Source: Spirochaetota bacterium (lineage in GTDB: Bacteria > Spirochaetota > UBA4802 > UBA5550). From it: a DNA stretch of 64,000 nt. The stretch's first letter is position 1; each line of letters begins with the position of its first letter. Below are positions 16,463 to 53,543 of the stretch, one piece after another. The notes beneath the pieces are model-generated. The model made no database searches, was not told the origin of the DNA, and saw only the letters and a program-made list of their open reading frames with translations. The stretch spans positions 1,792,001 to 1,856,000 of the forward strand of contig CAXXHB010000003.1 in the NCBI GenBank assembly GCA_963664815.2. Reading direction: 5' to 3'. A program made the translations under genes and the position numbers.

Positions 16463-18487
16463 ATGAAAAATTTAGAAAATAATAATCCAAACAAGCACAT
16501 AGAAGATTATCTCAATTTTTATTTCAAACTTTCTAAGCCTGACTTTGCTGTACTATTAACTGGTGAGTGGGGAAGTGGAAAAACTTGGTTTATAAACGAG
16601 GTAACAAAAAATTATTCAGCCACCCAAGGAAAAGAAAAAAATGATCTATTTCTTTTTATTAGTCTTTATGGGATGACTGATATATCTGAAATAGATCAAC
16701 AAATATTTGAAAAACTTCACCCTGTTATTAGTTCAAAACCTGTAAAATATTTAGGAAACATTATTAATGGTGCCCTTAAAATGGGTTTTAAATTAAATTT
16801 AGATTTAAACAAAGATGATAACGAAGAAAGTGAAATAGGCATAAATTCTGAGAGTTTAAGTTCAGTATTTAATTTATTTACAATAAAAACAGATAAGATA
16901 ATAATAATTGATGACATTGAACGATGCTTTATAAAACCTCAAAGACTTTTTGGATATATTAATACTTTCGTTGAACACCAAAGAGCTAATGTTGTTTTAA
17001 TATCTCATGAAGAAGAATTATTTGAAAAGAAAGATGAGAAAAATAATAAATTAGAAAACTCAAAACGATTTAAGGAAAAAACTATTGGTGCCACATTTAA
17101 AGTTGAATCTTGTGTAAATGAAGCTTTTAATTCATTTATTGACTTAATTGAAAGCAAAGAAAAAGATGTTCTAAATATACATAGTGACTTAATTCTTAAT
17201 GTCTATAACAGGCTTGACTATCATAATCTTCGTAATTTAAAACAAGCAATTCAAAACTTCCCATTCTTTTATAAACAATTTCCTGAAGGACTTCTTGATT
17301 ATAAATTGGAAAATTCATTGAGATATTTTATGAATGAAGAAAATAAGCATTATAGCTATATGGAAAGTACAATAGAAATGTATTTTTATCTTAAATTAGA
17401 AGGAAGCCAAGGATTAATAAATAATGAGAATTGGATAGAAGCAAAACAAATATTCAACAAGACTTATAATAATTACACAAAGCATCAACAAATTAAATCT
17501 AAAAATACAAACGATGACAATGATATACTGTTCCGTTCTATAATCAAACATGATCTTTTGGGGCTATACTGGTATAATGCAGTTATAGAAAATAAGAACT
17601 ACAGAGAAATTTTGGATGAAAAATTTTCAGAAATTAAAAAAGTTGATTCCGAAAAAGAACGCCCACTTTGGAAAATGCTTAATAATATTATAACTATGTC
17701 TGAAGAGGAAGTGAAAAGCAATTATGAAAATTTAAAACGTGATTTTGAAGAATTAAAATATACTCATCCAGGCGAAATCCTTCATATAGCAGGTTTATTT
17801 ATATTGATGTCAAATCATGGTATCATACCTTTGAAAAGTGACGAAATAAAATCTCTGGTTCTTGAAATAATACATTTATTAACACAGAAAAGTATTATTA
17901 AACATTATCAAAATTTTTATGGTCTTCGTGATTCATATGGCAGTTATATATTTTCAGCTAAAGATGATCCTGTTTTTAAAGAAATTTATGAATTAAATGA
18001 AGCAAACAATAAAATAGTAAGTGAGAATAGTAAAATTTTAAGTTTAAAAAAAGACTTAGAGCAGTTACCTAAGAATTTTACAGAGTTTTGCAATGAATTA
18101 AGATATATAAATTATAATGGTAAGTATTCTGATTTTTCAGCACTTACTTATATAGAGAATACTGACGATTTTTTTACTTTTTTAACTGATGTTCAATCTT
18201 TTAACCTATCGACTTTTCTAAGTTTTCTTATGGAACGCTACGAAATCAAATATGGAAATGGTATAATCCGCCCAATTTTCAAAGATGAATATATATTTCT
18301 TGTGAAGCTTAAGGAATTCATTGAGTCAAAAATATTATTAAAAAACCGGCTATATAATATTTCATCATTTAAGTTTGCTCAAGATATAGAAAATTTAAAT
18401 TTAATCATTACACGATTTCAAGAAACATTTATAGAATTAACAGATAATTATGAAGAAAAAGAAAAAGAATATTTTAATAAACGGTAA
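16463..18487 (+). CDS. KAP-family P-loop NTPase
   Basis: LTGEWGSGKT, FISLYG, IIIDDIERC, FKEKTIG, NLRNL; strongly AT-rich. Confidence 0.85.
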   Translation: MKNLENNNPNKHIEDYLNFYFKLSKPDFAVLLTGEWGSGKTWFINEVTKNYSATQGKEKNDLFLFISLYGMTDISEIDQQIFEKLHPVISSKPVKYLGNIINGALKMGFKLNLDLNKDDNEESEIGINSESLSSVFNLFTIKTDKIIIIDDIERCFIKPQRLFGYINTFVEHQRANVVLISHEEELFEKKDEKNNKLENSKRFKEKTIGATFKVESCVNEAFNSFIDLIESKEKDVLNIHSDLILNVYNRLDYHNLRNLKQAIQNFPFFYKQFPEGLLDYKLENSLRYFMNEENKHYSYMESTIEMYFYLKLEGSQGLINNENWIEAKQIFNKTYNNYTKHQQIKSKNTNDDNDILFRSIIKHDLLGLYWYNAVIENKNYREILDEKFSEIKKVDSEKERPLWKMLNNIITMSEEEVKSNYENLKRDFEELKYTHPGEILHIAGLFILMSNHGIIPLKSDEIKSLVLEIIHLLTQKSIIKHYQNFYGLRDSYGSYIFSAKDDPVFKEIYELNEANNKIVSENSKILSLKKDLEQLPKNFTEFCNELRYINYNGKYSDFSALTYIENTDDFFTFLTDVQSFNLSTFLSFLMERYEIKYGNGIIRPIFKDEYIFLVKLKEFIESKILLKNRLYNISSFKFAQDIENLNLIITRFQETFIELTDNYEEKEKEYFNKR

Positions 18488-18526
18488 AAAAAATTCATGT
18501 ATTTTACCGAATTAATGTGATATGGC

Positions 18527-18640
18527 GCACTACAATCGTACAACAAAGCTTATGCGCTTCACTCGCTTTGCTTGTACGGGCTAAGTCGTTTTCGATTTTG
18601 CGACCAAACGATACATAAGCAAAACATTAAAAAAATGGCA
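18527..18640 (+). other. attC-like site 3
   Basis: GTACAAC-AAA-GCTTATG ... CATAAGC-AAAAC-ATT; complementary L-box-like pair. Confidence 0.65.
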
Positions 18641-18686
18641 ATAATACCTAGACTGAACATCTGCCGAATAGAAGGATAAAAAAATA

Positions 18687-19211
18687 ATGCAGGGAATAGT
18701 ATTCAATGTAATAACAATTATTGTAGCAATTGCTGCGTTGATTATAAGCTTCATTTCTTTATATTATAGCATAAAAGTAGCCAGAGATGAAAGAGATTTC
18801 GAAACAAAGCTCGGCATAGTCAAAGAACTACAAAAAGCAAAGCTTGCTATCATGCAAATATATTCAAGTGATGGGGAACAAACTATCAATTTAAATCGAA
18901 AATATAAGGTACCTGAGTCGCTTGATATTACAACAACTTGGTGGGATGAAAAATCTAATAACCTTTTAGAATGGAATATGTTTACAATCTATGAACTTAA
19001 TGCTGCATATGAATCAATAAGGATGATAAAAAATAAAAAAGGGCAAAGTATAACTGGAACTGATCTGAAAAAAATAAACGATAATCTGGATTTAGTTTTT
19101 AAATATAATAGTAATTGGCTTATGTTTGGAGATGACCCCCAAAGCTATGACATATTCGTGAAGAATATTCAAAAAGGTCTCAAAGCATCAATGATAAAAA
19201 AACATATCTGA
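18687..19211 (+). CDS. Hypothetical protein with N-terminal TM helix (possible third cassette)
   Basis: AGGA RBS; hydrophobic N-terminus; follows attC-like site 3. Confidence 0.7.
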   Translation: MQGIVFNVITIIVAIAALIISFISLYYSIKVARDERDFETKLGIVKELQKAKLAIMQIYSSDGEQTINLNRKYKVPESLDITTTWWDEKSNNLLEWNMFTIYELNAAYESIRMIKNKKGQSITGTDLKKINDNLDLVFKYNSNWLMFGDDPQSYDIFVKNIQKGLKASMIKKHI

Positions 19212-19270
19212 ATATGAGATAATCTAAGAGGGATTATATAATAAATGACAATTATATATAGAGACCCCCA

Positions 19271-20745
19271 ATGTCCCTAATCCAATGCCCTGAATGCAAC
19301 AGCAGAATATCCGACAAAGCCGAGGCATGTCCTCATTGCGGTTTGCCTTCTACTTATTTCAAATCTATGCAGTCAAACGCCAGTTATGTTGCAGATTCAA
19401 ATATCTTCCCTGCTGTTAACATTTCAGATATAAAAGAAATCCTTCCCGGATTTATAAAAGATTATAAAAAAGTTTTCATTAAAGATAAATATATCACATC
19501 TCAGGAACAGAAGTTTCTCCTGGCCAGGTATGGCCAATGTTCAGATATTATTCCTGAAGCTGATCTATTTAAACTTATAGAAGATTTAACCACCGATCTT
19601 AAAATTGATATTGAAGATGTTAACAAATACCTCGATTGTCTGCTTAACCTAAAAGATTCAATCAGCAACCATAATGACAGATTCCTTGATTCAAAGCTTG
19701 TGGAACACAAAGATTATTTTGATACTATCCTTGCCCCCATTGATAAAACAATAACGCTTGATGACGAGCAGAGACGGGCGATCCTTATTGATGAATCTCA
19801 TTGTCTTATCATTGCCGGTGCTGGTGCCGGTAAAACCACCACAATGGCTGCAAAGGTTAAATACCTTATTGATAAGCAGAGGATCGATCCAAAGGATATA
19901 TTTGTCATATCATATACCAATAAAGCAATAGATGAACTGAAATACAGGATCAACAGACGTCTTAATCTTCCTGTTAAAATATCTACTTTTCACGCTTTCG
20001 GTTTTGAGATAATACGGGATGTAAAGCCTGTAATCCCGCAGGTCTCTTTCCAGGCATATGATATTATATATGATTATATTTATAAAAAGGTCTTTGATAA
20101 TAAAAGACTGCTTAAAAACCTGCTGCTTTTTTTAGGCTATTATTTTGATATCCCCCATGAAATGATGCAGTTCTCATCCCTGAAAGAGTATGCTATATAC
20201 AAGGGAAACCTTGATTATGAAACAATAAAAAGCAGGCTTGGCGAATATGTCTATGAAACAGCAAGTTCAAGGTCAGGGAAGAAGCGTACTATAACTGGAG
20301 AGTTTTTGAGATCAATCCAGGAAGTTCAAATAGCGAACTTCCTATACATGCACAGCATCGATTATGAATACGAGAAACCTTATCCCCATTCAATACCTGG
20401 CGCTAAAAAGAGTTATACCCCTGACTTTTACATCTGGCAGGATGATAAACAGGTATACCTTGAGCATTACGGCATATCAGAAAACTACCAGAGCGATATT
20501 TACGATAAACATCAGATAGATAAATATACAAGGGCTATTGTTGACAAAAGGAAACTGCATAGAGAAAACAATACGGTGCTGGTTGAAACATGGAGCAGGT
20601 ACAATGACGAACGTAAGTTACTTGGTCATCTACAGGAGATACTGGAAAATCACGGTTTTATTCTCAAAGAGAGGAACCACGAAGAGGTATACCGTAAACT
20701 GACCGAAACAGCACATGATAAATATGTGTATAGACTGGTAATGTT
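19271..20745 (+). pseudogene. UvrD/HelD-like helicase-nuclease, 5' part, interrupted by prophage
   Basis: CPEC..CPHCG zinc ribbon; AGAGAGKTT; TFHAFG; embedded PD-(D/E)xK-like domain (RSIQEVQIANFL, YTPDFYI, YLEHYG). Confidence 0.88.
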
Positions 20746-20928
20746 TATTTGCGTGCAAAATTAAAAAGCTTCATGTGCAGTTAAGTATAAAATAAAACAA
20801 AAACTTTGTCAATCCTTGATTTAATTTTCTAAAAATCCAATGCAAAACTGAAAATTCATAAAAAAATATTTACTTTTCAGAATGCTCTATATACAAATAA
20901 ACCATATTAAAAAAACGAGGATAAAATA

Positions 20929-21980: not shown

Positions 21981-22030
21981 TGGGTTATAACCGCATACTA
22001 TAGCAAACTATAACTAACGAAAAGTATTGT

Positions 22031-22789
22031 TCAAGAGGCTTTCCTAATAATTAATTCAGAACCAGTAGTCTTTTCTGTACCGACTGAATAATTCAGTTTA
22101 ACAGGCTTAAGCTCGAAATCCTTAAATACTTCTCTCATTTTAGGATGATCATTAAGACTTAGAATGAACGAACCTTTTATAGTTTTCAATACTTCTCCTA
22201 ATTTCACAAAATCCTCATATTCAAAATTGTGTTTATAGCATGGAGCTTCAAAATAAGGAGGATCAAGATAAAAAAACGTTTCAACACGATCATATCTTTT
22301 AATGAAATCCTCCCAAGAGAGATTTTCAATCATTACATCAATCAACCGTAAATGTACTTCTGAAAGTTCTTCTTCAAGGCGTAATAAATTTATCCTTCGT
22401 GGTCGATCAGGACTTACTCCAAAATTTCTTGATGAAACTTTTCCGCCGAAACATAGCCGTTGAAGATAATAATATCTGGCAGCTCGTTGTATATCTGTTA
22501 ATCCGGGGCCTTCCAATTGTTTTTTCCAATCGTTAAATTGTTCGCGAGATTGCAATAACCATTTGAATTGCCTTAAAAACTCTTCTAAATGATTCTGAAG
22601 TACGCGATAAAATGATATCAGGTCACTGTCTAAATCATTGATTATCTCACTTTTTGATGGATCTTTTCTAAAAAACACCCATCCGGCCCCTGCAAAAACT
22701 TCACAATAAATCTTGTGGTCAGGAATCATCCCAATAATCTGTTTTGAAAGGATACTCTTGCCACCTACATAAACAAGCGGACTTTTCAT
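22031..22789 (-). CDS. D12-class N6-adenine DNA methyltransferase (Dam-like), in the Mu mom position
   Basis: YVGGKS, EVFAGAG, INDLD, FYLDPPY. Confidence 0.92.
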   Translation of the reverse strand: MKSPLVYVGGKSILSKQIIGMIPDHKIYCEVFAGAGWVFFRKDPSKSEIINDLDSDLISFYRVLQNHLEEFLRQFKWLLQSREQFNDWKKQLEGPGLTDIQRAARYYYLQRLCFGGKVSSRNFGVSPDRPRRINLLRLEEELSEVHLRLIDVMIENLSWEDFIKRYDRVETFFYLDPPYFEAPCYKHNFEYEDFVKLGEVLKTIKGSFILSLNDHPKMREVFKDFELKPVKLNYSVGTEKTTGSELIIRKAS

Positions 22790-22796
22790 ATATTTT

Positions 22797-22909
22797 TACT
22801 CTCCTCTTTAAGTGTAATGTGCCGATTAATACGGAGAGTAGCAGCTTGCTGTGATCCGTGCGTCTACACGGGTCGCCGGGGATCTTCGAAATCCCCGGCT
22901 GCTCACTCT
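22797..22909 (-). promoter_or_regulatory. Structured leader of the methyltransferase: three-way junction plus anti-SD
   Basis: Stems AGAGTAGCAG/CTGCTCACTCT, GATCCGTG/CACGGGTC, CCGGGGAT/ATCCCCGG; GGAGAGTA (22833-40) complementary to TACTCTCC (22797-804, RBS). Confidence 0.6.
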
Positions 22910-22918
22910 ATTATTTTG

Positions 22919-23209
22919 TTACATCACTTGCTGATGTGCTTCCTTTGACATCTGTTCTTTTATTAAATAATGTCTATCCTTGCTGAATTTAAAAATCATA
23001 TTCTCTGTCGGTATTTCAACTCTCGATTCATCAAATAGAATGAACCAACGCCCAGAGTTTTGAGTTCTTGGTGTAAACATTGGCAAATTTGAACCAGGAA
23101 CTGTGCTCATAAATCCTGATGATTCATCGATCATTCCGTCACCTTTAACTTGTTTAAGTTTTCTCCAAAAAATACCATTCGTTTTCTTGTAGTAGACTGT
23201 ATATGTCAT
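22919..23209 (-). CDS. Phage hypothetical protein
   Basis: GGAGG RBS before ATG 23209; in late operon. Confidence 0.65.
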   Translation of the reverse strand: MTYTVYYKKTNGIFWRKLKQVKGDGMIDESSGFMSTVPGSNLPMFTPRTQNSGRWFILFDESRVEIPTENMIFKFSKDRHYLIKEQMSKEAHQQVM

Positions 23210-23210
23210 T

Positions 23211-23501
23211 TTACACCTCCGATGTATTTGCAAATTCTGGACGCTGCATTATTTGCTGATAGCAGATTGCAAGTATATTAACATCTGTTTTAAGTGCAGG
23301 TTCAAATATTGTATCATAGTCACTTATTTTATTCATTGAATCATTCTTTACAGTAAATCTGATATCTCGTGCAAGTATCTCTGATTTATCTGAATCTTTA
23401 TAAACGGTTAAATAATAATCGACTGTTTTTGTATCCTTCATAACATCTACCCTCTCAATACGGGTGTAGGAATCAGCAGTAATATATCCCTTAATTGCCA
23501 T
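23211..23501 (-). CDS. Phage hypothetical protein, possible tail fibre assembly factor
   Basis: AGGAG RBS; immediately downstream of fibre gene. Confidence 0.65.
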   Translation of the reverse strand: MAIKGYITADSYTRIERVDVMKDTKTVDYYLTVYKDSDKSEILARDIRFTVKNDSMNKISDYDTIFEPALKTDVNILAICYQQIMQRPEFANTSEV

Positions 23502-23513
23502 AGATTATCTCCT

Positions 23514-24950
23514 TTATTTAATTCTCATTATATATGCAGCTGTTAGGTATTTTGGAAGAATAGAAAAAGCATTTCCAGTTCCTGATGTGATGGTAGTTCC
23601 ACTAAAACTATGTGTATGTCTGGCAGACGCACCGCCAGTAGAATACATATCTGAATATCCCTGAGTTCGGTATGGATAGCCGCTGCCCGCAGTTCCATCT
23701 GTCTCATTTGTTCCAAAACTATGTGCATGGTCTGGGCTATCTGCACCAGTAGTTCCACTAAAACTGTGTGTGTGAGCTGGTAATTCTGCAATTGTCAAAG
23801 TAACAGTATTACTTCCGCCTATAACACCGATGCCAGCGAGAGGACTTCCCATTATAAATCTTGAATCTGTTAAATTGGGAAGATATCTGCCTGAGCCATT
23901 GAAAAGTGGACTTTCAATATCATAACACAATGAGCCATTACACACTTTCCAATTATTTGGAATGGATAATGATATTGCAGTAAAACCTGCATTTGATCCA
24001 TTGGTGAAATATCCTGGTATGTAAGCAGCTATTGTGGCAATGGGAGTAATATCTGAGGAACAGTAACCATTCAGTTTTTTAGCATCATCAGATATTGTAT
24101 CCTCTACCGCATACTTCCCTCTGTTACCATAAACTTTATAAATTGAAACAACAGAAGAAGCTGATGGAATTTCAATGCTTACTGTTAGTTCTGTAGGATT
24201 ACTATTCAATAATGCAGATAATTCGATAGTTTCTACTGCACCAGTTCCAGTGAGTGTTTTTGAAGTAACATTTACTCCATCAGTCAATTTCAGAATAACT
24301 CCTGCAGGGCCTTTTACCAGAAATTTTAAAGTAAAATCAGATCCAGAAAGATATTTAGCCCAGTTAAAAAATCCGCTCAGTGTCTGTTTGAAAATACGGT
24401 TTGATGTACCATCTGAACTGCTTTGTATTTTGCAGCACAAATTGGTTGTATCATATCCGATTTTGCCGTCCGAGCCTCCATCTGTATATGCCCATTCATC
24501 AGGTATACCATAATCATACCAATTAGTAATTCCTGTTTTACTGCTGTAATATTTGAATTCACCATTTGAAACTAGATTCCTTTGTGATGCAGCATATATC
24601 CTGTTAAGTAAATTAGTTGATAGCGCAGCATCATCTCCCAAGGCGGTTGCTATTTCATTTAATGTATTTAATGCTGATGGAGCTCCTCCTATCAATGCAG
24701 ATATAACATTATCGATATATGTTTTAGCTGCTTTTTGACTGGCAATCTTCAAATCTGAATTTGATGATAAAGCTCCATCAGTATCAATAGAGGCGCCACC
24801 AAGTTTATCTATTTCAGTTTTAAGATAATTATCATTACTGTAAAGTCTGACAAACTCGCTATTAAAAGTTGATCCCCTGGCCAAGGTACCTGTTGAGGTA
24901 TCTCTGCCATCCTTATATTCTGTAATTTGATTCCCGTTAAATTCTCCCAT
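23514..24950 (-). CDS. Tail fibre protein with collar domain and HxH needle repeats
   Basis: LIGGAPSALNTLNEIATALG; IPNNWKVCNGS..YLPNLTDSRFIMG collar; HTH/HAH/HTH motifs. Confidence 0.85.
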   Translation of the reverse strand: MGEFNGNQITEYKDGRDTSTGTLARGSTFNSEFVRLYSNDNYLKTEIDKLGGASIDTDGALSSNSDLKIASQKAAKTYIDNVISALIGGAPSALNTLNEIATALGDDAALSTNLLNRIYAASQRNLVSNGEFKYYSSKTGITNWYDYGIPDEWAYTDGGSDGKIGYDTTNLCCKIQSSSDGTSNRIFKQTLSGFFNWAKYLSGSDFTLKFLVKGPAGVILKLTDGVNVTSKTLTGTGAVETIELSALLNSNPTELTVSIEIPSASSVVSIYKVYGNRGKYAVEDTISDDAKKLNGYCSSDITPIATIAAYIPGYFTNGSNAGFTAISLSIPNNWKVCNGSLCYDIESPLFNGSGRYLPNLTDSRFIMGSPLAGIGVIGGSNTVTLTIAELPAHTHSFSGTTGADSPDHAHSFGTNETDGTAGSGYPYRTQGYSDMYSTGGASARHTHSFSGTTITSGTGNAFSILPKYLTAAYIMRIK

Positions 24951-50024: not shown

Positions 50025-50814
50025 TGACGAAATTCTTGATGTGGCAACCGGTGAAATAATAAACACTGACAATGCTGAATCAAGGCTTGTATTCTTTGAA
50101 CAGCAAATTGCTTCAGGTTGTATACAGATAGCATTGGCTCTTAAAGCTATACGAGACGAGCAACTGTATATTTTAAGATGCAGATCAATGTCAGAATATA
50201 TAGAAGAGTATCTACCTATGCCTTTGAGAAATGCAAAGCGCCATCTCCAGATTGCTGATGCATTCAGCGGTAAAGCTCTCGAAAAATTCAAGAAAACACC
50301 AATGACTCTACTTCTCGAAATCTCGCGCAATGATGAACTTCTTGAAGAGGCTAATGATCCTGAATCAGACGCTGATGATGTTGTTAAGAAAGCGAGGGAG
50401 CAGGAAAAACGGAAATATCAGAAGAAACTTGAAAAGAGCGATGAAGTAATTAAGGGTCAGGATGCTCTTCTGAAAAATCTCCGTGACAGGCTGAATGAAA
50501 AAGATGATGAAATTGGTAAACTGAAAGGGAGCATCCAGGGCCTCATTTCAAAGAAAGACATTGATCCTGCCAAAATAGTTTTCATAACTCAGAAAAAAGA
50601 AGCCTTCGGTGTTATTGATGAATCTATGATTCAGATTCTTAACTGCCTGGGTACACTCAATAACATACCTTATGATCTGCTTGATGCCGAACTATCCGGT
50701 AAACTTTCACAATGTATGGCGGCAATAGAGGCCGGTATACGCAGGCTTCATGATTTTTATTCTTCATATGTTGTTACGCCTGCAGATAATGCTGATCTGG
50801 TACCGGGGCTATAA
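49975..50814 (+). CDS. DUF3102-like coiled-coil phage protein
   Basis: IALALKAIRDEQLY..SEYIEE..RNAKRHLQIA; precedes transposase as in other transposable phages. Confidence 0.6.
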   Translation: MGKKKQENAIIPAEIVNDEILDVATGEIINTDNAESRLVFFEQQIASGCIQIALALKAIRDEQLYILRCRSMSEYIEEYLPMPLRNAKRHLQIADAFSGKALEKFKKTPMTLLLEISRNDELLEEANDPESDADDVVKKAREQEKRKYQKKLEKSDEVIKGQDALLKNLRDRLNEKDDEIGKLKGSIQGLISKKDIDPAKIVFITQKKEAFGVIDESMIQILNCLGTLNNIPYDLLDAELSGKLSQCMAAIEAGIRRLHDFYSSYVVTPADNADLVPGL

Positions 50815-50815
50815 A

Positions 50816-52564
50816 ATGGCAAAGGGAAAGACATTCGACGAATATCTCCTTATCGAATATTCAAACAGAATCAATGCTGCTGAAAGCCGCACTGAAAAAA
50901 GAGATGCTGTTGAATGGTTTATGGAAGTGTCCGGATGCTCAAAAGGTACTGCATACAAAGTGAAGGATAAAATCTCAAAGGGTATACCATATATAGAAAT
51001 TGCATCAGCCAATCAGAAAAGAAAACCAAGAAAAAACGATGTTGAACTTCAGATTGAAAAGCGCGATGCATTACGCGTCTCCGCAATAAAAAGAAGACCT
51101 GGTGAAGATAAAAAGTGGATACCTACCGAGCGGGCTATAGAAATCTGTGAGGATATGGGACTCATCGAGAAGGAAAAATATAACCGTTACAAGATGGATC
51201 GCATACTCGCACGGGAAGGTTTAAATTTCCGCTCAGCTCAACATAGTAAAATAGCATGGGAGATAACAGCAGATTATCCCATGCATGTACTCGTGGTTGA
51301 TGCCACACCAATAGATCACTATTACATGAGTCTCGATCGTAAAGTTGTACGTTATGATGGATTGGCGAGCGGGGACAAACATGTTGATGATTATCTTGAA
51401 AGGGATAAGCTTTCAAAGGTGTGGGTCTACTATGCTGTAGATATGAAGACTAAGGCATTTCTTGTGCTGCCATTTGCTTCAGTTCCAAAAGGAGCAGCAT
51501 CAAAAAACCCGGGTGAGAATGCTGAAGACTGGATGGCCTTTCTTAAATGGGTTATGCTCCCCAAACAAAATACTCCATCACCTCTTGAGGGTAGAAAAGC
51601 TCCGTTCTCTGATTGCCCTATTGAGGGGATACCTACCTTTCTATACAGTGACCGTGGTTCAGGAATCGGTAAATCATCTCTTGTCGGCAGGATGTGTTTA
51701 CGGCTTGGTATTCAAATTGTAACTCACTTACCCGGAAATCCATCGGCTAAGGGGTCAGTCGAAAGCCGTATTGGGGCCTTTAAACGAAGCTTTGAATGCC
51801 AGATAAACCCTGGCGTAATTAAAGACATTAACCAGCTCATTTACTTCTATATGTCCTGGGCAGAGTACTACAACAAAAAGCATGGTCTGTATGACAAATG
51901 GCTCAAAGAGTCGCTTGAACATCCAGTTACCAGGGTAACTCCGCAGAATCTTCAGGATGTAACAGTATCACATATCATCAGGGTAATTGACGGCTATGGG
52001 TGCGTTTCAATTGATGGAGAGAAATGGTTTGTAACATGTGATGGAAAGTATAAAGGAACAAAAGCAACCATATACAGGGTTCCTTCAAAAGACGGTTTTG
52101 TTTATAAAGCGGAGCTGCGTGACCGGGTAATAGTGGACTGTTATAATGGCAGAAAGCAGCACAGGTTTGAAGAGATTAAAAGCTTCCCGAAAACTGAAGG
52201 TGAAAGAAATCGGGAAGAAGCCCAGGGACTGTCAAAGGTAATCGGAGGTATGCAGGATTTTGACGATATACTTCCCAAAAACGGAGACAGCAAGATTGTT
52301 CGTATGCCTTCAATAACCAGACCATCAATAGATACTCACTCACCAGTTGTACCATCAGAATTTAAAAGCCCTGAAAAAGCCTGGAAATGGGTACTCAACC
52401 AGACCGGACTTTTTCTGGAAGAGATTCCGGAGGATAGTCGCGATTCAATCAACAACCTCTTTATCATGTTCATCCGGGAGGAGGGATTTATCTCAGGTGA
52501 ATTTGCAGTAAAGATGGCAAATCTAATAAACAGTAAAAAGAAGGAGGGAATATCTCATGGGTGA
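50816..52564 (+). CDS. Mu-like DDE transposase (MuA analogue)
   Basis: VLVVDATP (D), LYSDRGSG (D), PGNPSAKGSVES (E); C-terminal GCVSIDGEKW. Confidence 0.85.
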   Translation: MAKGKTFDEYLLIEYSNRINAAESRTEKRDAVEWFMEVSGCSKGTAYKVKDKISKGIPYIEIASANQKRKPRKNDVELQIEKRDALRVSAIKRRPGEDKKWIPTERAIEICEDMGLIEKEKYNRYKMDRILAREGLNFRSAQHSKIAWEITADYPMHVLVVDATPIDHYYMSLDRKVVRYDGLASGDKHVDDYLERDKLSKVWVYYAVDMKTKAFLVLPFASVPKGAASKNPGENAEDWMAFLKWVMLPKQNTPSPLEGRKAPFSDCPIEGIPTFLYSDRGSGIGKSSLVGRMCLRLGIQIVTHLPGNPSAKGSVESRIGAFKRSFECQINPGVIKDINQLIYFYMSWAEYYNKKHGLYDKWLKESLEHPVTRVTPQNLQDVTVSHIIRVIDGYGCVSIDGEKWFVTCDGKYKGTKATIYRVPSKDGFVYKAELRDRVIVDCYNGRKQHRFEEIKSFPKTEGERNREEAQGLSKVIGGMQDFDDILPKNGDSKIVRMPSITRPSIDTHSPVVPSEFKSPEKAWKWVLNQTGLFLEEIPEDSRDSINNLFIMFIREEGFISGEFAVKMANLINSKKKEGISHG

Positions 52565-53543
52565 AAATACAATTGTACCTGTTGAAACACAAAATGTCCG
52601 TGCTGTTAAGAATGCAGTTCGTTCAACTGTTAATAATAATGGAATGATGGCTGTAGTGGCAGATGTAGGTTCAGGTAAAACAACTATGTTTAATTATCTG
52701 GCAGACTACTGGAGCAGTAATCCTCAGAAGTTCAGGGTTATAACCGTTAAAGCCTTTGAGTCGCCACTCACAAAAATTGGGGTTATAATGCGTCTTATGA
52801 TGGAAACAATAAATTCGGATATTCATATTCCTCGCGGGATTGAGAGACAGTATAAAGGACTTACAGATGAACTTTTCAGGTTCACCAGAAACAGAAGTAA
52901 CAGGGTTATCCTTATGATAGATGAAGCACAGGATTTGAATTACCAGACATTCATGGATATAAAGAAGATCCATGAAATTGCCGGCAATGGTATGAAGAAT
53001 ATGTTTTCAGTCATCCTCTTCGGTAAACCTCACCGCAAATGGGACAAACTTTATGCCGGCCCTGAAATAGGTTACCGCATGAATATGGTACTTCTTGAAG
53101 AACTTACCCAGGATGAAATGATAAAAATCGCTGAACAAAGATTCACTCTCAACTTTGAAAACGATGCAGTACGTAAAAGATTCACTGCATCTGTTAAGTA
53201 CAAAACACCGCTCGGCATTGAGTTTTTTGCAAAAGCGTTAAAGAAAGAACTTGGACTCGATGAAAGTGAATCAGCTCATGTAAATTCTGAGTTGGTTACA
53301 AAGATACCAATGTTGTCACTAAAGATCAGAGCAAAACAGGCTGGTATAAAACAGCATGATATAGCGGAAGCTGGCCGCCAGGTGATTAAACATAAAAAAG
53401 TCAATGAACAGAGAGTCAGTGAGTTCATGAATAACAAGCTTGATGATGAACAACTGGCAACTGAGCTCACAGTAATTACAGAGCAGCTTATAAATTCAAG
53501 CCTTACTCGCAAGCGCAATATAATATCAGGTAAAGCAAATTAA
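52557..53543 (+). CDS. AAA+ transposition ATPase (MuB/ExeA-like)
   Basis: ADVGSGKTT, ILMIDEAQDL, VILFGKP; overlaps transposase end. Confidence 0.88.
   Translation: MGENTIVPVETQNVRAVKNAVRSTVNNNGMMAVVADVGSGKTTMFNYLADYWSSNPQKFRVITVKAFESPLTKIGVIMRLMMETINSDIHIPRGIERQYKGLTDELFRFTRNRSNRVILMIDEAQDLNYQTFMDIKKIHEIAGNGMKNMFSVILFGKPHRKWDKLYAGPEIGYRMNMVLLEELTQDEMIKIAEQRFTLNFENDAVRKRFTASVKYKTPLGIEFFAKALKKELGLDESESAHVNSELVTKIPMLSLKIRAKQAGIKQHDIAEAGRQVIKHKKVNEQRVSEFMNNKLDDEQLATELTVITEQLINSSLTRKRNIISGKAN

Follow-up and report, generated by a model that had tools for sequence, protein, structure and literature searches.

A conserved structured RNA element opposite to a D12-class methylase gene of Mu-like prophages, a candidate antisense RNA in the slot of Com

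The prophage end and its methylase gene

The window, that is, the whole stretch of 64,000 nucleotides analysed here, contains a transposable prophage of the BcepMu/Mu-like type. Homologues of transposases A and B are encoded at 50750–53543 on the plus strand (PHROG 2610/310 and 2630/296). The genes for baseplate and tail-fibre proteins are located on the minus strand and reach down to 23514. They are followed by two ORFs of 96 aa each (23211–23501 and 22919–23209), both without an assigned function and without a match in family searches (Pfam, PHROG, TIGR). The next gene on this strand encodes a D12-class (Dam-family) DNA adenine methyltransferase, hereafter the methylase. It scored 100.4 bits against TIGR00571, which is under the cut-off of that model (114.85), and its best relative of solved structure is DpnM (2dpm; E 2.6e-16). 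The methylase gene looks like the last phage gene on its side, after the tail-fibre genes.

Close phage DNA matches to the locus were limited to the methylase coding region of Acinetobacter phages. M.EcoGII was considered as a comparison enzyme and set aside as beta-class, a classification taken from the search listing alone. Just beyond the methylase end of the prophage, at 16463–20764, two proteins are encoded: a P-loop NTPase of the KAP family, 674 aa in length, and a protein of 497 aa that has an N-terminal zinc ribbon and the first half only of a UvrD-type helicase domain. This region may represent a defence-type island or a truncated gene.

The methylase gene and the nearer of the two 96-aa ORFs are separated by a gap of 129 nt. 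As stated in the original prediction, this gap contains a GC-rich island, with a GC content of 0.53–0.55 at 22800–22919 compared to approximately 0.3 in the surroundings. The features of the locus, in window coordinates, are the following:

22031–22789, minus strand: D12-class (Dam-family) DNA adenine methyltransferase gene, 252 aa (Pfam PF02086, E 1.3e-31; PHROG 56, E 1.8e-85)
22797–22804, minus strand: Shine-Dalgarno zone GGAGAGUA of the methylase (from the sequence; in a hairpin in the MFE structures of both strands)
22822–22830, plus strand: AT-rich box CCGATTAAT just before the candidate RNA, weakly similar to a -10 box, the counterpart of the CGATAAT-type box in AT-rich relatives
22831–22910, plus strand: core of the candidate structured small RNA, opposite to the methylase gene (match to model R2, 54 bits, E 1.6e-12)
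22835–22845, plus strand: 5' strand of stem P1, predicted to pair with 22898–22909 (11 pairs, C22904 bulged; MFE)
22846–22850, plus strand: remnant of the P4 arm (R2 model alignment and MFE)
22851–22876, plus strand: predicted hairpin P3, 22851–22860 with 22867–22876 (10 pairs including two G.U), loop 22861–22866 (MFE)
22877–22897, plus strand: predicted hairpin P2, 22877–22883 with 22891–22897 (7 pairs, CGGGGAU/AUCCCCG), loop 22884–22890 (MFE)
22898–22909, plus strand: 3' strand of P1 (MFE)
22909–22921, plus strand: U-rich tail after P1 (the 12 nt at 22908–22919 read CUAUUAUUUUGU, with 8 U)
22919–23209, minus strand: ORF of 96 aa without cysteines and without a family match, not a Com homologue; its stop codon is 9 nt from the element

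The element occurs as a single copy in its own genome, which rules out its reading as a repeat or mobile element. Of 63 further genomes of the family searched by BLAST, 62 lacked it; the sole match, in genome G031, covered 28 nt (E 0.008). The original prediction had looked to Rfam for a known family, the D12-methyl motif among others. No match at E values up to 10 was obtained for either strand of 22000–24000 in a cmscan against Rfam 15, and the same search of 17 related loci, at E up to 1, revealed nothing but one tRNA. ARAGORN detected no tRNA or tmRNA genes in the whole window.

The D12-methyl motif is reportedly a structured RNA candidate upstream of D12-class methyltransferase genes, and this position is its common point with the element described here. 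No Rfam model matched the window or its 17 relatives, which sets the two apart, though the element might still be some variant of the motif. The motif was not found in the main text of PMC5737381 (Weinberg et al., 2017). Published reports of an RNA motif, or of an antisense RNA, beside methylase genes of phages were likewise not found in our literature search. As far as our searches go, an RNA element in this methylase slot is not in print and is absent from Rfam 15.

Predicted fold of the element in the window

Folding of an 82-nt segment agreed with the earlier proposal of a three-way junction at 22835–22909, which was predicted on either strand and was better than in shuffled sequences. The minus strand, which has the sense of the methylase mRNA, gave an MFE of –37.6 kcal/mol (z –4.89), and the plus strand one of –41.6 kcal/mol (z –5.06); none of 200 shuffles was as good in either case. 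The MFE structure makes up 56% of the plus-strand ensemble, as against 7% for the MFE fold of the mRNA strand. Since the two z values are so close, the window alone does not decide between the strands. The number of pairs that are G-U on the plus strand only had been given as one and has to be corrected to two, namely T22852.G22875 and T22855.G22872, both A.C on the mRNA strand. On the plus strand, stem P3 thereby has 10 pairs instead of 6.

The overlap of two alternative pairings in the methylase leader was borne out as well. On the minus strand, UACUCUCC (22840–22833) is the exact complement of GGAGAGUA (22804–22797), which covers the ribosome-binding site (RBS) of the methylase. On the plus strand, GGAGAGUA reads TACTCTCC, which is the left arm of an inverted repeat of 8 bp whose other arm is 22833–22840. 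Such a perfect 8-nt complement to the element is unusual: none of 300 shuffles of the 20 nt before the start codon reached this length. The junction and the RBS-hiding hairpin are mutually exclusive in the window, and the MFE structure of the full leader takes the hairpin and sacrifices the full closing stem.

The P4 zone of the window reads GCAGC-UU-GCUGU, as compared to GCAGC-UUCG-GCUGU in relatives (R2 model alignment). This loss of 2 nt from the loop prevents P4 from closing; the 5' half of the arm becomes part of a longer P1, and a three-way junction results. The copy in the window is thus a somewhat eroded member of its group, with the P4 arm lost and a weak promoter box. The RNA may end in the U-rich tail at 22909–22921. 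Past this tail, at 22921–22937 (+) and within the 3' end of the upstream ORF, lies another small hairpin (ACATCA-CTTGC-TGATGT), which might also belong to the RNA's 3' end.

The element in relatives of the methylase

The set of related methylase loci comprised 36 from viral contigs, 32 from species genomes, and 43 from metagenomes. These 111 loci are partly non-independent (7 identical pairs among the first 68) and include 87 distinct leaders of at least 150 nt. Hosts of the relatives include Desulfosarcina, Desulfobacula, Desulfatitalea, Comamonas, and Achromobacter. A GC-rich multi-stem element was present at the same place, within the 200 nt upstream of the methylase gene, in nearly all 111 loci. 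By eye, three structural variants could be distinguished, one of which occurred in approximately 95 of the 111 loci: class A, similar to the window (26 loci), class B (35 loci), and class C (34 loci), the last two being assigned by eye and tested by RNAalifold only. Five loci have a Com-like ORF in place of the RNA element, and the other 11 have neither the element nor such an ORF, contain a partial gene, or lack the upstream sequence (also by eye). Attempts to cover all variants with one model failed: class C was marginal (locus L061, E 0.1 with model R1 and 0.005 with model R2) and class B was not reached.

Homologous methylases are encoded in 97 cultured-phage records, of which five were inspected. 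All five, that is, Shewanella phage MuM16-1, Burkholderia phages phiE125 and KS9, Halomonas phage phiHAP-1, and Escherichia phage PhiKM (L126, L127, L130, L129, and L128, respectively), possess a class-C-like element. It lies in the unannotated sequence of about 140 nt that precedes the methylase gene (100 nt to the annotated start in PhiKM), at about 760–900. The opposite strand was the better folded one in three of these five phages. One Desulfosarcina genome harbours three separate methylase copies with class-B elements (L048, L050, and L051) and thus has several related prophages. At locus L111 (171–215), an extra hairpin of about 20 nt, GCAGGCCTGCCTGC, is inserted at the outer end of P1.

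Covariation among the leaders of homologous methylases had been named as a mark of an RNA switch. It was indeed found; the selected fold, however, lies on the strand opposite to that of the mRNA, and no single masking helix is conserved. Model R1, a covariance model built on the mRNA strand, gathered 22 distinct class-A elements including the window. Covariation was present in its alignment, yet the mRNA strand showed 42 A.C cells against 5 G.U cells, as is characteristic of a fold that belongs to the opposite strand. When both strands were folded, the one opposite to the methylase was the more stable in all 22 class-A cores, by 11 kcal/mol on average. Most class-A cores form a perfect four-way junction on this strand, with zero unpaired junction nucleotides; the window has one arm fewer.

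Model R2 was built for the opposite strand from eight relatives, with the window left out. It matched the plus strand of the window (54 bits, E 1.6e-12) and 12 further unseen class-A elements. At E values up to 1e-4, it recovered 21 of the 22 class-A sources and missed only L058, which had been found by R1. Standard pairs made up 93.9% of the cells in the R2 alignment of 21 sequences, compared to 73.7% in shuffles, and 26 of the 32 pairs had changed on both sides. The covariation score was 0.642 as against 0.255 in shuffles, and none of 500 shuffles reached it. If the partners were slid by 1–3 columns, 41–51% of the cells were paired. Double changes among the relatives were spread over the helices, with 7 of 8 pairs in P1, 9 of 10 in P3, and 6 of 9 model pairs in P2. 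G.U cells outnumbered A.C cells on the opposite strand by 105 to 14, a count from alignments that were fitted by models and hence favour structure, unlike the energy asymmetry in 22 of 22 cores, which is independent of any alignment. Several G.U positions were fixed: columns 12–42 in 18 of the 21 sequences, columns 75–101 in 15, and columns 45–70 in 11.

The other two classes showed the same asymmetry in RNAalifold runs on structure-blind MAFFT alignments. The values were –47.0 for the opposite strand versus –25.8 for the mRNA strand in class B (n = 19), and –12.2 versus –1.6 in class C (n = 28). In class B, G.U and A.C cells numbered 57 and 10 on the opposite strand, and 9 and 18 on the mRNA strand. 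Taken on these sequence comparisons, the structure is most likely selected on the plus strand, opposite to the methylase gene. A conserved secondary structure opposite to the target gene is also a feature of cis-encoded antisense RNAs.

The linkage of the element to the methylase was examined by a scan of 122 whole genomes of the order with model R2. Eight genomes, the window's own included, had one match each. All seven new matches were located 30–45 nt upstream of a methylase gene with 65–70% identity, on the opposite strand. A scan of whole genomes is not biased by proximity to methylase genes, so the pairing in seven of seven cases identifies the RNA element and the gene as a fixed pair. 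The element and the D12 methylase gene are a conserved two-part module.

These data bear on the cis-acting switch in the methylase mRNA that was the main claim of the original prediction. There, the junction in the minus-strand leader would compete with the pairing of the 3' strand of the closing stem to the Shine-Dalgarno zone, and the winner, perhaps aided by a factor, would set translation. In the window such a switch is physically possible, the two folds being exclusive, the leader MFE hiding the RBS, and the 8-nt complement having no equal in the shuffles. We folded 28 class-A leaders on the mRNA strand, each including the element and extending 18 nt beyond the start codon. The RBS was paired, wholly or partly, with the 3' strand of the closing stem in five of them (the window, L118, L053, L120, and L123) and fully paired with the C-rich 3' strand of P2 in the MFE structures of another five; in the rest it paired elsewhere or was mostly free. 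In 13 of the 28 leaders, the RBS zone had a perfect complement of at least 6 nt somewhere in the element, but only three had one in the closing-stem zone. In nine of the 13, the complement to the element was one that few shuffles reached (fraction 0.05 or less). According to the predicted folds, the RBS can thus be masked in some leaders, the window being a clear example, but no single masking helix is conserved. The same applies to a Mu-type mRNA stem that hides the translation start, which was predicted in the window and is not one conserved helix in the 28 relatives.

Against a cis switch also stand the weaker fold of the mRNA strand in 22 of 22 elements, with its 42 A.C and 5 G.U cells, and the RBS partner, which varies among relatives. 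Features of riboswitches were sought in the class-A members: the better strand has no unpaired junction nucleotides in most of them, and thus no conserved unpaired core typical of ligand-binding switches, and the RBS partner on the mRNA strand is not conserved. We consider a cis switch unlikely. The unusual 8-nt RBS complement of the window and the complements of at least 6 nt in 13 of 28 leaders do suggest that some masking at the mRNA level may coexist with an RNA from the other strand, and a two-layer control by mRNA masking and antisense RNA is possible.

The element could also act as DNA, for example as a cruciform or by binding a transposition protein or late activator, or it could, in the window, be a decaying remnant without function. 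These readings would agree with the lost P4 arm and weak transcription signals of the window copy and with the GATC found at the base of P3 in several members. However, the window's three remaining helices are intact, and compensatory changes keep four helices in the relatives despite sequence drift. Together with the strand-specific G.U bias, these changes point to a single-stranded nucleic acid rather than to recognition of duplex DNA, and a DNA site or remnant is very improbable. The GATC is not invariant among members, and its role as a Dam-sensing site was rejected for this reason.

A candidate antisense RNA in the place of Com

Transcription signals were searched for on both sides of the element. 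On the RNA strand, GC-rich class-A members contain TTTACA, a spacer of 17–18 nt, and an AT-rich (TGn)TAtAAT-like hexamer, often with the TGn. This promoter-like motif precedes the junction by 15–22 nt, an interval that holds a small hairpin. In 10 of 21 elements the motif scored better than shuffles (fraction 0.05 or less), and in the other 11 it did not. The conservation of TGTAAAGG beside the RBS of the methylase is explained if it serves as the -35 box of this opposite promoter. A conserved second copy of the P1 5' strand further downstream was considered as a switch element and discarded, being mostly the TGn of the extended -10 box on the other strand. Class C has a TGnTAGGCT-type box at the corresponding place.

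AT-rich relatives have a CGATAAT-type box 2–6 nt before P1. An AT-rich box is kept in all seven new relatives from the genome scan as well as in L019 and L042; its counterpart in the window, CCGATTAAT, is a poor match to a -10 box. A scan of the window's plus strand for consensus promoters gave none beside the element, the only match being TCGAAA-17-TATTAT inside it. The CGATAAT-type box of the AT-rich relatives reads as a -10 box on both strands. It could thus serve the methylase as a promoter of its own in these relatives, in which case the complement of the RNA would be missing from the methylase mRNA.

A terminator scan of the window detected none at the element. Among 21 elements, the 12-nt tails after P1 had a U fraction of 0.41 compared to a background of 0.28 (8 of 12 in the window). 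These U-tails are not uniform, and at a few loci a separate terminator hairpin takes their place. At six loci (L030, L031, L034, L064, L101, and L108), the mRNA strand has a strong hairpin 10–25 nt upstream of the element, flanked by T-runs on one side or on both. These hairpins are predicted terminators, bidirectional in some of the loci; their position raises the question of where the methylase mRNA starts. At L033, L060, L109 (tRNA about 90 nt upstream of the element), and L030, the element and the methylase directly follow a tRNA gene. The module thus lies at a prophage attachment site there, and transcripts of phage genes could run on into the methylase only once the prophage has excised.

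The original prediction had also mentioned an antisense RNA, as an alternative to the cis switch. Covariation, the asymmetry of G.U and A.C cells, the folding of both strands, and RNAalifold all support this alternative better than the switch. Our favoured reading, held with moderate confidence, is that an undescribed antisense small RNA from the plus strand restrains or times the methylase. The GC-rich island would be the gene of a structured RNA of approximately 80–110 nt. Transcription would start some 30–45 nt from the start codon of the methylase and run away from it. The RNA would adopt a perfectly stacked four-way junction (P1, P4, P3, and P2) in most relatives and a three-way junction in the window. 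It could pair with late-gene read-through transcripts that enter the methylase leader, in the manner of a cis-antisense RNA. Alternatively, the promoter of the RNA could compete or collide with transcription towards the methylase. In either mode, the methylase would probably be kept off until late, in a slot where other phages use Com. The sequence comparisons show the fold, its strand, its conservation and its linkage to the gene, from which we infer that the RNA is transcribed, where it ends, and that it affects the methylase.

Cis-encoded antisense RNAs are known from phages and plasmids, for example sar of P22 against ant, OOP of lambda against cII, and plasmid countertranscripts (CopA, ctRNA). 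The element resembles them as a small, highly structured, unannotated candidate RNA gene opposite to the 5' region of the gene it may control. It further has promoter-like boxes (better than shuffles in 10 of 21 elements, with no consensus promoter in the window) and a U-rich end. The known examples have one or two stem-loops, in contrast to the four-way junction found here. The present RNA also differs in that it belongs to no Rfam family and in that its predicted start leaves the RBS uncovered in most members. With its unusual perfect four-way junction, the RNA would constitute a new family.

A rigid stacked junction with G.U pairs at fixed positions is more than plain antisense action needs. 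The plus strand could therefore encode a structured RNA that binds a protein or acts in trans, for example as an inhibitor or partner of the enzyme or as a decoy for host defence. The strict linkage to one enzyme family would fit such a role, and so would the terminators upstream on the mRNA strand (L030, L031, L034, L064, and L101), which perhaps leave no read-through mRNA to pair with. However, a high degree of structure is also found in the cis-encoded antisense RNAs that plasmids and phages possess. A function of this kind, other than antisense, is rather unlikely. A more specific version, in which the four-way-junction RNA binds the methylase as a dedicated partner (its inhibitor, its chaperone, or a subunit that targets it) or acts as a decoy for a host defence sensing the enzyme or its product, is distinctly improbable. 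If true, a methylase-partner RNA would explain the rigid fold, the fixed G.U pairs, and the one-to-one linkage across phyla.

The closest known systems include that of Mu, whose terminal modification gene mom is classically controlled by Com at the level of translation. In both cases, a transposable phage ends, past its tail genes, with a modification gene that is harmful or useless in the lysogen, and a dedicated control device, a proposed one in the present case, lies just upstream. The description of the locus as a Com-less analogue of mom control gains support from the position of a D12 methylase after tail-fibre genes in a transposable prophage, with no Cys-rich ORF before it. The absence of a Com gene here also held up on inspection of the upstream ORFs, which are without a family match and the nearer of which is without a cysteine. 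Unlike Mu, the locus has in place of Com a structured RNA element whose fold is selected on the opposite strand. The enzyme differs too, being a D12-class adenine methyltransferase and not a Mom-type enzyme of acetamido-adenine modification.

The five loci in which a Com-like ORF replaces the RNA element were identified by eye, from a Cys4 zinc finger with two CxxC pairs. They are located at L039:2790–3000, L096 and L097:1340–1500, L106:170–357, and L116:610–794. Homologues of the present methylase therefore carry a Com-like ORF in the same slot. These loci fit the arrangement of com plus methylase known from B3 and FluMu; PMC3299994 describes com followed by an adenine methylase in place of mom for the Mu-like phages B3, FluMu, and Pnm1. 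For M.EcoMIV, a homologue encoded in prophage Phi2 of E. coli ST131, PMC4659465 reports low transcription and no methylation signal in the lysogen.

In most of the retrieved relatives of the methylase, the place of Com is taken by a conserved, unannotated candidate RNA gene. In temperate phages, orphan Dam-like methylases rank with the most frequent genes for anti-restriction and epigenetic functions; several of these methylases are known to be silent in lysogens. To our knowledge, the way in which this silence is maintained is known only for methylases controlled by Com. An antisense RNA at these loci is directly testable with existing phages and simple reporters. If true, it would represent a second, RNA-based solution to a problem that is otherwise solved by Com.
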